NCBI GenBank assembly: GCA_902627635.1
Contig: CACOKA010000002.1
Location: forward strand, 1 to 55,403
Reading direction: 5' to 3'
From: an uncultured Candidatus Actinomarina sp.
GTDB lineage: Bacteria; Actinomycetota; Acidimicrobiia; Actinomarinales; Actinomarinaceae
DNA: 55,403 nt
Shown here: one piece after another, positions 12,036-22,169 of the stretch
Layout of the letters: every line of letters begins with the position of its first letter
Numbering within the stretch: position 1 is the stretch's first letter
Translations under genes and position numbers: made by a program
Notes under the pieces: generated by a model
Database searches by the model: none
What the model was told of the DNA's origin: nothing
What the model saw: the letters and a program-made list of their open reading frames with translations, nothing else

Positions 12036-13121
12036 ATAAGGTTGTAGATTTTAAAGAGAGGATAACTTCCGCTAAGGAGTATCTTTGACTTTGATAACAA
12101 GAAAAAACAACTTCTAGAAATTAATAAAGTCATTTCGAAAGAAAATTTTTGGTCATCAAATCCTAACGCGCAAAATGTAGTTAAAAATGCATCAATCATT
12201 GAAAAAATCGTGAATTTGTTGGAGATTATTGATAATGAAATTAAAGATATTGAAGAACTTGTTGAATTAAGTAAGGATAATATATCTGAATTAGATGAAT
12301 TAAAGAATCAGCTTGATGAAACAGAAAAAAAAATTCAAGATCTTGAAGAGGAATCACTTTATTCAGAAGAGTTTGATAATTATTCTGCAGTTTTGACAGT
12401 TAATGCAGGTGCCGGCGGTGTAGATGCTCATGACTGGGCAGAAATATTGTTAAGAATGTATACAAGATTTCTAGACGACAATGATATGAAATATGAAATT
12501 GAAGAAATATCATCCGGAGAAGAAGCTGGAATAAAATCAGGGTCTATTAGAGTTGAAAATTTTAGAGCATATGCAAATTTAGAAAGTGAAAGGGGAGTTC
12601 ATCGATTGGTAAGGATAAGTCCATTTGACAGCAATAAAAGAAGACATACAAGTTTTGCTGGAGTAGACGTTATTCCTTTAATTGAAGATTCTGAAGACTA
12701 CGAATTAAATGATGATGATATCCGTATAGACGTTTATAGGTCTTCAGGGGCGGGAGGACAACATGTAAATACAACTGATTCAGCTGTTAGAGTCACACAT
12801 ATTCCAACAGGTATTGTTGTTGCTTGTCAGGCAGAAAGATCACAATTACAGAATAAAATTCGTGCATTAAGTCTTCTTAAATCAAAATTAATCATCCGGG
12901 AAAAAGAGGAAAAATTAAAAAAACTTGATTCAATTAGAGGAGAACAAGTTGAAGCTGGATGGGGTAGGCAAATAAGATCCTATGTAATGCAACCTTACCA
13001 ACAAGTAAAAGATTCAAGAACAAATATTGAAGTCGGGAATATACAATCAGTTTTAGATGGAGATATTAACATATTTATAAATGAGTATCTAAAATGGCGT
13101 AGACAGGGATTAAATGATTAA
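12017..13121 (+). CDS. prfB: Peptide chain release factor 2, made by a programmed +1 frameshift (12017-12085 joined to 12087-13121)
   Basis: ATG at 12017 gives MYKELINKVVDFKERITSAKEYL, then an in-frame TGA at 12086-12088. Shifting +1 at CTT TGA C continues DFDNKKKQLLEINK... into the listed ORF, which carries SPF and GGQ. Total is about 367 aa. Confidence 0.9.
12074..12089 (+). promoter_or_regulatory. RF2 autoregulatory +1 frameshift site (SD-like AAGGAG, TAT, CTT TGA C)
   Basis: The sequence aaggag tat ctt tga c has the same layout as the canonical prfB site (internal SD, 3-nt spacer, CUU UGA C). Confidence 0.85.
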
Positions 13122-14672: not shown

Positions 14673-16041
14673 AAAATTCTTCATTTCTTTTATATTATTT
14701 CTTCAAATTATCCAATTAAGCGTTGTAGATACATCTTTAGCGATCACTGCTGAAGAAAGACTTGAAGAGGTCGAAAAACAGCTCATTGCAGTTGCTAATC
14801 AAATCAAACAATATGAAGGAGAGAAGACTGATTTAGAAAAAGCAATATTATCAAATGACGCAGCTATTAAGAAGGTAAATGATGAGTTAGCTGCTGTACA
14901 AAAAGAATTAGTTGCTGCTGAACTTGCTTTAGAAAATGCACTACAAGGTTACGACGAGTCCTTAAACAATCTTGCAGCTGTTCAGCAAAATATTCTAAAA
15001 GAGCAAGTCAATCTTGGTGTCACAAAAAATGAAATATCAAAAGTCAAAGATGAATTATTTGAGACACAAAAAAGTCTAAATTCTGCAAAAAATCAACTAC
15101 AAGATAAAGCTGTTGATATGTACATCAATGGAGTTATGAGTCCAGCAACTGCATTGTTTGTAGATTTAAATGATTTATCGGACTTTCTTGCTGTATTAGG
15201 TTATGCGTCGGCAATTGTGAATACAGCATATGAAATAATTGAATCTTTAAATTCTTTTGAAAATTTATCCGAAACCCAAACAGAGTTTTTGAAAGATCGT
15301 GAAGAACAAAGAGAGGAAATAATTTCTTCACTACAAATTGAAGAGGAAAAAAAGAACCAGATATCGATTGAGGCTGAAGAGTATGCAGAAGATGTAGAAG
15401 AAAGTAAAAACAGAGTTGAAATTGAAAAGAGAAAAGTTGAAAATAAAAAAGCGGCAGTTTTAGCTGAAAGAAGAAATGCTCAAAATCTTCTAACTCAAGC
15501 TAATAACCAACTTGCAAAGCTAGATGCTGAACATGCAAATCTTGAAAAACTTGAAGATGCTATTCAGGCTGATATTGAGAGGTTAAGTTCACTAGGAGGA
15601 GTAGCTCCAGATAAATTAACATGGCCAGTAACTGGTAGTTACGTATCAAGTGGTTATAAATGGAGGCGTTTTAGAGGTGTAACGAGTTTTCATGGTGCTA
15701 TTGATATACCTGGAAGGACTGGAACGCCTATAAAAGCAGCTGCTGGAGGTGTTGTAATTCTTGCAAGGTACTACGGCTTAGCTGGAAGGACAGTGTTTAT
15801 CGATCATGGTGGAGGCATGACTACTCTTTACTTCCATATGAACGAAATTAAAGCATCTGTTGGTCAAACAGTCATTACAGGTGATGTGATTGGTACCGTT
15901 GGAACAACTGGAAGATCAACAGGGCCACATTTACATTTTGAAGTAAGGCTTAAAAATCCTAATTCTGTTAGTTGTAGTCTTCCATACTTAGATCCAACGT
16001 CAAGAGGCAGAATGAACCCCTATTGTTTTTTAGATAGATGA
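14665..16041 (+). CDS. Secreted coiled-coil M23 peptidase (murein DD-endopeptidase family)
   Basis: Signal peptide, ~300 aa of heptad-like coiled coil, and a C-terminal M23 domain (HGAIDIPG, GPHLHFEV). Confidence 0.85.
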   Translation: MIKKFFISFILFLQIIQLSVVDTSLAITAEERLEEVEKQLIAVANQIKQYEGEKTDLEKAILSNDAAIKKVNDELAAVQKELVAAELALENALQGYDESLNNLAAVQQNILKEQVNLGVTKNEISKVKDELFETQKSLNSAKNQLQDKAVDMYINGVMSPATALFVDLNDLSDFLAVLGYASAIVNTAYEIIESLNSFENLSETQTEFLKDREEQREEIISSLQIEEEKKNQISIEAEEYAEDVEESKNRVEIEKRKVENKKAAVLAERRNAQNLLTQANNQLAKLDAEHANLEKLEDAIQADIERLSSLGGVAPDKLTWPVTGSYVSSGYKWRRFRGVTSFHGAIDIPGRTGTPIKAAAGGVVILARYYGLAGRTVFIDHGGGMTTLYFHMNEIKASVGQTVITGDVIGTVGTTGRSTGPHLHFEVRLKNPNSVSCSLPYLDPTSRGRMNPYCFLDR

Positions 16042-16472
16042 AAGTTTTTGCCGAAAATCGTAAAGCTAGAACTTCATATGAGTTTTTAGAATTTTTTGAA
16101 GCTGGAATTGTACTTACAGGAGCAGAAACAAAAAGTATCAGAAACGGTGGAATTTCAATAATTGATGCTTTTGCAAGTCTTGAAGATGAGGAAGTTCTTA
16201 TTAGAGAGATGAATATTGAACCTTATAAGTACGCAGAGTTAATTGACTATGATCCTAAAACTCCAAGAAAACTCCTTCTTCATAAAAAAGAAATAAAGAG
16301 ATTAATTGGATTAACCTCTACAAAAGGCCTTACATTAATTGCAACAAAAGTATTTGAACAAAATGGATTTATAAAAATTGAATTAGCTTTAGCAAAAGGT
16401 AAAAAAAATATAGACAAAAGAAGAAAAATTACTGATAAACGAATCAAAAAAGAAATTAGAGACCTTAAATAA
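16038..16472 (+). CDS. smpB: SsrA-binding protein SmpB
   Basis: NRKARTSYEFLEFFEAGIVLTGAETKSIR and the basic C-terminal tail are typical of SmpB. Confidence 0.9.
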   Translation: MKVFAENRKARTSYEFLEFFEAGIVLTGAETKSIRNGGISIIDAFASLEDEEVLIREMNIEPYKYAELIDYDPKTPRKLLLHKKEIKRLIGLTSTKGLTLIATKVFEQNGFIKIELALAKGKKNIDKRRKITDKRIKKEIRDLK

Positions 16473-20118: not shown

Positions 20119-20682
20119 TTATTTGGTTTTATAGCCTTTTTCATCGATAAACTCTTCTGGTTCTAATCCAAGTCCGTCAGCGACTCTATTTATGTAGTTA
20201 AAATATGCAATTATCTGCACGATTTGCGAAATATCTTTATCCGATAAATTGTAACTCCTCAATAATTCAATATCTTTTTTATTAACTTTACTTGGATTTT
20301 CCGTTAGTTTTTTTGCAAATTCGCACATTGCCATTTGGACTGATGAAATAGAACTTGTTGTCCAGTCCTTTGCGATTTCATCCACTAATTTTTGATTATC
20401 TGTCTCCGACCGAAGATCATACAAATGTGCCCTTATTCAATATTCACATTCGTTTGAAATAGAAGTAACGACAGCTAGTAATTCACTATCGAACCTCGAG
20501 ATGTTTGAATTACCAAACATCGTTGAACTGTATAGATTCATGGAATTTTTTAAAATTTCGGGAGTTTGAGATTGAATAGTAAGGACATTCCAAATTCTCC
20601 CAGCTCTTCTAAGTCCTTTCTCATACTCTTTTTTAAGAAGGCCAGTAGATTCTTGAAATTTGAACAATTTTATAAATGCCAT
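20119..20682 (-). CDS. AhpD/carboxymuconolactone-decarboxylase-family peroxidase-related protein with an in-frame TGA (Sec candidate or pseudogene)
   Basis: The two listed ORFs (20437-20682 and 20119-20424) share one frame and are separated only by TGA at 20437-20439. The joined read is ...VVTSISNECEY[TGA]IRAHLYDL..., which matches the family CxxCxxxH motif with TGA at the second Cys. Confidence 0.6.
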
Positions 20683-20712
20683 ATTTACAATTTTTACTTA
20701 AAATAAAAGCGT

Positions 20713-21156
20713 ATGCAACTTCCAATTGAACTAAAACAAGCAATCGATAACAATGCATTTTGCGCATTAGCAACCAAACTTAATGAAAAAGAGATTCAGA
20801 ATCATCTAATGTGGGTTGATTACAAGGATAATAAAATCCTAATCAACACAGAACAAGGAAGAAAAAAAACAGAGAATATTAGGCAGGAACCAAACATTTC
20901 CCTTGTTATATTTCATCCAACTGACATGTATACATGCTGGGAAATAAGAGGTGTGGTAGAAAATATAGTTCAAGACTCTTCCGCTAATGATCATATAGAT
21001 TATTTATCAAATAGATATTCTGGTAAGCCCTATGGCAGAACAGAAGATGTTACCTGGGAACAAGCAGGATTCACATCTAGAGAAATATGGGAAATAGATG
21101 TTAGTAAACTAATTCCTATGGTCAGTAGAGCTCAGACTAAATCAGAACCAGAGTGA
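20713..21156 (+). CDS. Pyridoxamine 5'-phosphate oxidase-fold protein (possibly F420-dependent PPOX class)
   Basis: 147 aa. Split-barrel-like pattern (CALATK...H.MWVD..DNKILINT...K..NI...PNISLVI). Sits in an F420-encoding genome context. Confidence 0.55.
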   Translation: MQLPIELKQAIDNNAFCALATKLNEKEIQNHLMWVDYKDNKILINTEQGRKKTENIRQEPNISLVIFHPTDMYTCWEIRGVVENIVQDSSANDHIDYLSNRYSGKPYGRTEDVTWEQAGFTSREIWEIDVSKLIPMVSRAQTKSEPE

Positions 21157-21828: not shown

Positions 21829-22169
21829 GGGGGTGAACTGGCTTCGACTTTGAAGCGAGCCTCTCAGTAGCGAGCTGAGGGTCCTAGGGCCTCATTAAAA
21901 ACGTAGGAAAAAAAAGATAACTGCCAAACCTAAATTGGCCGTAGCAGCTTAATTGTTGCTCGTCGACTATCGGGGCTCCCACCTCGGATAGTATCGGCGT
22001 CGAAATGTGGGATGCTGAGTTAGATTACCGGCTAGCTTTTAAGATTTAAGGTAAAAACTATTGAGAATTTGTTTCTGGTGACTCTCTCAATAGTATTTCA
22101 CCAGATGCGCTCGGAGAAGCTGTTGGGTAGCTTAAAAGGACCGGGGTTCGACTCCCCGCACCTCCACCA
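21829..22169 (+). ncRNA. ssrA: tmRNA (SsrA)
   Basis: The 5' end GGGGGUGAACUGGCUUCGAC pairs with the 3' end ...GCACCUCCACCA, with G3:U in the acceptor stem. T-arm is GGGGUUCGACUCCCC. The internal tag frame ends ...AKPKLAVAA-TAA (21923-21952). Confidence 0.9.

Follow-up and report, generated by a model that had tools for sequence, protein, structure and literature searches.

AhpD-like selenoproteins with the CxxU motif have been known since 2005, when 'AhpD-like 1' was described from the Sargasso Sea (PMC1088965). Table 2 of the GOS report contains 299 selenoprotein sequences of this family (PMC2398784), and PMC13188914 counts 'AhpD-like protein, TIGR01926, CxxU' among those 'Predicted with high confidence'. 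The sequence-only reading of the locus considered here, which named AhpD-like proteins as a recognised bacterial selenoprotein family of marine metagenomes, agrees with these reports (PMC1088965, PMC2398784). The gene resembles Sargasso and GOS proteins in its TIGR01926 score above the cut-off, CxxU motif, marine origin and in-frame UGA followed by a hairpin with G in the loop. Unlike those reports, the present analysis deals with a named host and offers evidence for selection and for the SECIS element at the level of orthologues.

Of the CxxC proteins compared, the D. radiodurans structure 6K40, taken to be DR1765 judging by titles, shares the fold, and Pseudomonas PA0269 shares the spacing of Glu, Cys, Tyr, Cys and His, whereas here the second position is occupied by Sec and the Sec machinery is needed. 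AhpD of M. tuberculosis likewise has a CxxC core on a helical hairpin and a relay that includes Glu and His, and its lipoamide-linked reduction can be likened to the route proposed below (PMC3141380, PMC8945050, PMC6300522). It differs in topology (PMC3141380) and has His132 in place of the Tyr found here. Moreover, unlike the AhpC/AhpD pair of M. tuberculosis, the locus has no ahpC-ahpD operon and no classical AhpC scored above the cut-off in 22 genus genomes, and we do not assign the gene to a system of this type.

A preprint of 2026 on Ca. Actinomarina reports selA, selC and selD in 84/84 genomes, together with divergent selB, and ~5 predicted selenoproteins per genome; no SECIS was obtained there with Rfam models, and its main text contains neither 'AhpD' nor 'peroxidase' (bioRxiv 10.64898/2026.04.03.716425). 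The AhpD-like gene may be present, unnamed, in its supplementary candidate lists. This preprint was the only publication found by searching the literature on Actinomarina or Actinomarinales with selenocysteine, selenoprotein or SECIS, while searches joining Bmp8 or debrominase with AhpD, or Acidimicrobiia with selenocysteine and AhpD, found none.

The AhpD-like gene and its in-frame TGA

The window, i.e. the whole analysed stretch of 55,403 nucleotides, belongs to contig C2 of a draft host assembly (813 kb, 41 contigs, 77% complete, ~33% GC). Two of its ORFs, 20437-20682 (81 aa) and 20119-20424 (101 aa), have a common frame on the minus strand and, as was noticed at the outset, are parted by nothing but a TGA: from ATG at 20682 to TAA at 20119 there are 187 codons, and codon 82 is the sole internal stop (translated context N-E-C-E-Y-*-I-R-A-H). 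The read-through protein, encoded by a single copy in the host genome, gained 133.8 bits in the profile search with TIGR01926 'peroxidase-related enzyme' (cut-off 81.8) and exceeded the cut-off of PF02627 (CMD); its score with the 357-position model NF041238 (AhpD-related CFYUT selenoprotein) was 51.3 bits, below the cut-off of 175. Approximately 160 residues align with the AhpD-like structures 3C1L, 6K40 and 2PFX in such a way that the TGA coincides with the second Cys of the CxxC motif in each, exactly the redox position to which it had been ascribed, and the motif of the product is E67..C79-E-Y-U82..H86. Based on the conservation of the TGA, selection past it, the presence of selA, selB and tRNA-Sec(UCA) in the genome and a short hairpin at SECIS distance, we consider it nearly certain that codon 82 encodes Sec. 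Sequence comparison also makes it highly probable that 20682-20119 constitutes a single undamaged gene, encoding an AhpD-like selenoprotein of the CxxU type in Ca. Actinomarina.

Table 1. Features of the AhpD-like locus and its surroundings in the window
Feature	Coordinates	Strand	Basis
AhpD-like (TIGR01926 / PF02627) gene of a very probable selenoprotein, 187 aa	20119..20682	-	HMM scores, AlphaFold2 model, TM to 6K40
TGA codon 82, almost certainly read as Sec (U of CxxU)	20437..20439	-	29/29 genus orthologues; aligns with second Cys
Cys79, first Cys of the motif, putative resolving residue	20446..20448	-	invariant in 29 genus orthologues
Active-site helical hairpin: Glu67 (20482-20484), Cys79, Tyr81, Sec82, His86 (20425-20427)	20425..20484	-	PA0269 relay spacing
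Putative bacterial SECIS, 5-bp stem (one U-G wobble in host), GGUC loop 20408-20411	20403..20416	-	comparison
Longer hairpin of the sequence-only reading; lower stem not conserved, excluded from element	20391..20425	-	pairing counts
30-bp gap between starts of the AhpD-like and divergent PPOX-class genes	20683..20712	.	13/13 genus loci
Divergent PPOX/F420-dependent oxidoreductase-like gene, context only	20713..21156	+	PF01243 above cut-off, TIGR03618 below
Release factor 2 gene prfB, context	12210..13121	+	TIGR00020 413.7 bits vs cut-off 370

The PPOX-class neighbour is syntenic in 13/13 genus loci examined, always with the same divergent spacing, and no Shine-Dalgarno sequence is evident there by eye. 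Overlapping promoters and leaderless mRNAs are possible in this gap, for which the promoter/terminator scan gave no signal above chance. The window also contains a tmRNA gene (21829-22169, plus strand) and, at 16038-16472, a gene resembling smpB by eye.

AhpD-like matches were found in 30 of 36 same-genus genomes, and no match was obtained in the other six (72-90% complete). The set of full-length orthologues, 28 fetched ones plus the query gene, comprises sequences at 70-99% identity, and in 29/29 of them codon 82 is TGA without any other internal stop. In one more genome (G028) the match consists of three fragments with a TGA apiece, in another (G021) of a fragment ending short of the site, and 11 further genus genomes have one TGA each within the AhpD-like match. 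Averaged over sequence pairs, pN/pS amounts to 0.15 in codons 1-81, 0.30 in codons 83-185 and 0.12 in codons 150-185, with pS of ~0.6 on either side of the TGA, and dN/dS after it is 0.05-0.09 in five pairs with the query gene; as estimated from these ratios, purifying selection acts on the halves of the gene both before and after the TGA. E67, Y81, position 82 and H86 are invariant in 26 aligned sequences, where Sec was shown as C.

Beyond the genus, TGA occupies the same site in 25 Acidimicrobiia and 6 Gemmatimonadota orthologues examined. The latter (L094-L099) are 41-42% identical, have the same stem register along with the TGA, and were placed by the midpoint-rooted tree among Acidimicrobiia on a long branch. 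Remoter AhpD-like paralogues of the class have two TGAs inside the match (G042:C1:383911-384369, G318:C1:283016-283483, G186:C41:82328-82795, G297:C156:3320-3871 and G077:C13:19719-20174) and are possibly double selenoproteins. Support for the nucleotides themselves at 20437-20439, which was worth checking in a draft genome, came from an RNA-library contig covering 20375-20653: it has six differences, none at the TGA, among the 40 of 46 variant rows listed. This comparison is based on contigs and is uninformative on expression level or strand. Each of 14 public runs contained half or more of the words sampled from the region.

In public protein sets the family looks different. Among 54 sequences where the site was found, query included, 44 have W at the Sec position, the Trp-bearing public orthologues being of full length, and two others have Arg (set P0002-P0045, P0055 and P0056). 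The W forms are most likely artefacts of gene calling with code 4 on short contigs. Public protein sets, then, hold AhpD-like selenoproteins either split or with Trp in the active site.

Selenocysteine machinery and competing readings of the TGA

The host has selA above the cut-off at C25:4537-5820 and tRNA-Sec with anticodon UCA at C11:17026-17116 (75.2 bits; called SeC by ARAGORN). A contig gap splits its selB: the N-terminal 293 aa lie beside selA where C25 ends, the C-terminal 75 aa where C37 starts, and each piece is under the cut-off set for the whole protein. The gene selD was not found in the 77% complete assembly, and neither were any AIRS_C-domain genes, while this family was matched in 14/14 control genomes; since the family is missing wholly, the absence of selD points to an assembly gap. 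Thus the search for Sec genes proposed along with the sequence-only reading succeeded for selA, split selB and tRNA-Sec and failed for selD, which is nevertheless present in 35/36 same-genus genomes, each match containing one TGA (site checked in 12). In the same 36 genomes selA was found in 31. Matches to RF01852 with 55-57 bits in G258, G303 and G309 and with 48.7 bits in the host were rejected as tRNA-Sec candidates, being tRNA-Ser. Among closer Acidimicrobiia, selA accompanies TGA in 25/26 genomes and was found in 0/3 TGC genomes tested; as it is common in the class (71/80 in the sample, 9/24 in an unselected set), this co-occurrence discriminates weakly. One genome (G059) combines a TGA paralogue and TGA-bearing selD with selA not found.

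Three readings without Sec have to be weighed against these data. A nonsense mutation (pseudogene) or a sequencing/assembly error at a Cys codon was initially taken to be equally possible, and indeed TGT or TGC is one base away from TGA, the genome is an incomplete draft and the hairpin is weak. Orthologues with the same TGA and no further internal stop (29/29 in the genus), TGA at this site in those from Acidimicrobiia and Gemmatimonadota, purifying selection past the TGA and the match of an independent RNA-library contig across it make such damage exceedingly improbable, far less likely than Sec. The results named beforehand as contrary to Sec, namely the lack of all Sec genes, Cys orthologues devoid of the hairpin or further disabling mutations, did not occur in the genus data. 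Two genes, the first encoding an 81-aa peptide ended by the TGA and the second a separately started C-terminal protein, might be suggested by TTG at codon 87, which opens the 101-aa ORF in the host, and by the ability of UGA to work as a stop; some truncated product should be expected from RF2 competition regardless. Yet this TTG is present in 3/29 orthologues and no start codon within codons 83-125 is common to more than 12/29. The break would also fall in the active-site helix H80-92, parting Cys79 from His86, and structurally solved homologues are single chains, so that this arrangement is very improbable. It is the conservation of the TGA, selection, rarity of TTG and the RNA contig that together reject the pseudogene, error and two-gene readings.

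Reading of UGA as Trp (genetic code 4), or its non-specific read-through, could find support in the numerous W-containing public sequences. At the same time the only tRNA-Trp found in the host has anticodon CCA, which reads UGG, and the sole UCA tRNA is tRNA-Sec; Trp would destroy the CxxC motif. The RF2 gene in the window and 176/767 long ORFs of the genome ending in TGA indicate that UGA is an ordinary stop in the host, as had been noticed earlier from other genes of the window, and the chance of a Trp reading is practically negligible.

A related genus has both TGA and Cys forms. In 13 searched genomes of genus g124 from the same class (G323 was left out) there are 2 TGA forms, 8 full-length and 2 partial forms without a stop, and one genome without a match, while selD was found in G325 only, a TGA genome. 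Seven of the eight fetched TGC loci were scored (L212 was left out): in all 7 the site is TGC, the first Cys is replaced by Thr (TxxC) and 3-5 of 6 Watson-Crick pairs are present; the full 6-bp Watson-Crick stem was seen in 22/25 closer Acidimicrobiia TGA orthologues versus 0/7 TGC forms. In the Cys forms (L119-L121, L210-L217) Leu of the SECIS stretch is changed to Phe or Tyr. A 100/100 branch separates these Cys forms from the other sequences, and they are nested within the TGA forms of a midpoint-rooted tree from which 20/29 genus orthologues were left out and where Actinomarina rows have a composition bias. This nesting, from which the direction is deduced, suggests a Sec-to-Cys change upon loss of the machinery. 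Genus g124 may serve as a natural control, in which loss of selD goes along with TGC forms whose stem is degraded and whose first Cys is missing. An exception is G309 (92% complete), where the orthologue (L118, G309:C31:8581-9123) has TGA and a perfect stem, and selA, selB, selD and tRNA-Sec were searched and not found: either the assembly is incomplete or sel genes were lost recently, leaving an orphaned selenoprotein gene.

The SECIS candidate and other putative selenoprotein genes

A 35-nt hairpin at 20391-20425 was proposed from the sequence as a weak SECIS-like element. Its nucleotides are as written there and the GGUC loop starts 25 nt after UGA, i.e. at SECIS distance, and its weakness is real. 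The minimum-energy fold given by ViennaRNA differs from the proposed hairpin, energies are -5.8 kcal/mol for the 35-mer and -7.6 kcal/mol for 60 nt from UGA, the latter with another predicted fold, and folding was no better than that of shuffles (z = -0.57 and -0.10, respectively). Over four segments z was -0.10, 1.39, -0.57 and -1.78, which gives no support for the hairpin. Comparison of orthologues divided it into two parts. Across the 25 distinct sequences of the genus, 123/125 cells of the upper stem (20403-20416) are paired and the pair in its Leu codon varies only between C-G and U-G, whereas the lower stem is paired in 116/175 cells with one proposed G-C pair kept in 2/25; in the wider orthologue set the lower helix is 58.9% and the upper one 92.4% paired. 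Alignment of orthologues thus retained the TGA and the upper stem, and the lower stem was not conserved.

Codon usage points to the same short element. Codons 91-93 (CGG-TCG-GAG), which form the GGUC loop and the 3' arm of the 5-bp stem, are identical in 29/29 orthologues, while genome-wide CGG makes up 1.0% of Arg, TCG 4.5% of Ser and GAG 24% of Glu codons. Of the residues that never change and could be encoded in more than one way (81 in total), five have the same codon throughout the 29 sequences: two are Lys AAA, and three make up this very run, the only fully frozen one of 32 three-codon windows of invariant residues. RNAalifold recovered the upper stem from the alignment. In 50 distinct sequences (25 genus plus 25 Acidimicrobiia orthologues) pair 24-37 is U-A in 26, C-G in 21, U-G in one and unpaired in two. 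The U-A form occurs also among GC-rich orthologues (L115, L117, L138) spread across separate parts of the tree, which means that the change is not only an effect of GC-content. Two-sided change is confined to this one pair, such pairs being no more numerous than in shuffles (414/500), and other pairs of the stem are mostly invariant, partly because they are fixed by the protein sequence.

The model of bacterial SECIS assumes a loop of 3-9 nt with G in its first two positions, an upper stem of 4-16 bp, a distance of 16-37 nt from UGA and an energy of at most -7.5 kcal/mol (PMC13188914, Fig. 2A). The loop (4 nt, GGUC), stem (5 bp) and distance (25 nt) of the host element agree with three of these four constraints, and its energy is borderline. 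GU of the apical loop recalls G23-U24 of the E. coli SECIS (PMC8659212). Judging from the alignments, the SECIS is likely to be the upper 5-6 bp stem with its GGUC loop, not the 35-nt hairpin.

Two other candidates of the host genome with like stems support the Sec reading of the AhpD-like TGA. One is a SelW/Rdx-like CxxU protein of 78 aa (C21:6714-6947, minus strand), above the cut-off of TIGR02174, with TGA in 29/29 matches among 31 genomes searched and a frozen 6-bp stem-loop. Its gene lies directly upstream of a membrane-protein gene, and its length equals that of the 78-aa 'uncharacterized' family, the most abundant one in the preprint (10.64898/2026.04.03.716425). The other is a TlpA/ResA-like UxxC protein of 153 aa (C12:19418-19876, minus strand) with an N-terminal hydrophobic stretch; here too TGA was found in 29/29 matches among 31 genomes searched, and the stem shows G-C/C-G compensation. 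It was not among the PF00578 matches listed. Both genes have a stem of 6-7 bp whose loop contains AGUU, 16-17 nt downstream of UGA. In selD of 12 relatives a similar GU-containing hairpin can be seen by eye farther from UGA, where alifold picked another stem. All 35 genus selD matches have one TGA, and the preprint's text infers the Sec form in about half of its genomes.

A genome-wide scan for UGA followed by a GGT[CT] hairpin was swamped by chance matches, and a dicodon score was abandoned as antisense frames topped its ranking and the AhpD-like gene was missed. The ranking that replaced this score left 271 candidates with the AhpD-like gene 6th; high-ranked C21:3231+ was dropped on inspection, since it looks like a junction of two adjacent membrane-protein genes. 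A motif filter with at least 3 G-C pairs passed 2/271 candidates and 12/35,688 TGAs, missing the AhpD-like gene. With at least 2 G-C pairs it passed 3/271, exactly the three candidates discussed, 45/35,688 TGAs and 0/176 long ORFs ending in TGA. Built post hoc from the three genes, this filter is descriptive and not an independent test. These genes provide a candidate form of SECIS for the genus: a stem of 5-7 bp, the loop of which includes GU, at a distance of 16-25 nt past UGA.

Fold, possible function and significance

The AlphaFold2 model based on the 26-sequence alignment, with Sec folded as Cys, had pLDDT of 88.8 (49.8 with a single sequence). It matches D. radiodurans alkyl hydroperoxide reductase 6K40 with TM 0.86 at 31% identity, and five peroxidase-related entries, 6K40 and four others, with TM 0.81-0.87. 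The model has the all-helical fold with a Glu-Cys-Tyr-Cys-His relay on the helical hairpin, and the spacing of Glu67/Cys79/Tyr81/Sec82/His86 equals that of the PA0269 relay Glu36/Cys48/Tyr50/Cys51/His55 (PMC3141380). PA0269 reduces H2O2 weakly (PMC3141380), and, according to a review, a Deinococcus AhpD-like mutant is sensitive to H2O2 and AhpD is reduced via lipoamide proteins (PMC8945050).

In the proposed scheme, drawn from established Sec biology, SelB-GTP with Sec-tRNA(UCA) would bind GU of the loop and, competing with RF2, insert Sec at codon 82. The product, by analogy with the AhpD family, would be an all-helical thiol/selenol oxidoreductase, in which Sec82, aided by the Glu67/Tyr81/His86 relay, may attack a hydroperoxide or a disulfide of the partner, and Cys79 may resolve it to selenenylsulfide. 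These roles are suggested by the TxxC forms, which keep position 82 alone, and by the mechanism of M. tuberculosis AhpD. Electrons for re-reduction would most likely come from NADH, passed on by lipoamide dehydrogenase and lipoylated proteins. Lipoamide dehydrogenase was matched in 21/21 relatives, in 20 of them above the cut-off, and was not found in the 77% complete host assembly. Classical AhpC (TIGR03137) was above the cut-off in 0/22 genus genomes, 19 of which gave only a weak ~150-aa match; this makes it more likely that the enzyme is itself a peroxidase or serves another small peroxiredoxin. Participation of the AhpD-like selenoprotein in peroxide defence is the somewhat favoured assumption.

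Sec may also be inserted in an enzyme that reduces an electrophile other than peroxide. Debrominase Bmp8 shares the fold (TM 0.82-0.83 at 16-17% identity), classical AhpC was not found in the 22 genomes, and the gene is placed not beside peroxide genes, its conserved neighbour being the PPOX-class oxidoreductase. Sec is suited to halogen abstraction, and the TxxC forms of the relative, implying that position 82 alone is indispensable, would fit the one-residue chemistry of a dehalogenase. The weak peroxidase activity of PA0269 (PMC3141380) speaks against such a substrate, and we regard another electrophile as unlikely; a Se-dependent reductase such as a dehalogenase of marine brominated or iodinated compounds, similar to Bmp8, is more doubtful still. 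If true, this would account for the retention of both the gene and the Sec machinery in a ~1-Mb genome, and an abundant ocean bacterium would be involved in halogen cycling.

The general picture of bacterial selenoproteins is left unchanged by the AhpD-like gene, whose family has already been published. Most Sec targets of the organism were left uncharacterised in the text of the 2026 preprint, and the AhpD-like gene puts a name to one of the few for which a highly streamlined, abundant marine bacterium would keep the Sec machinery.
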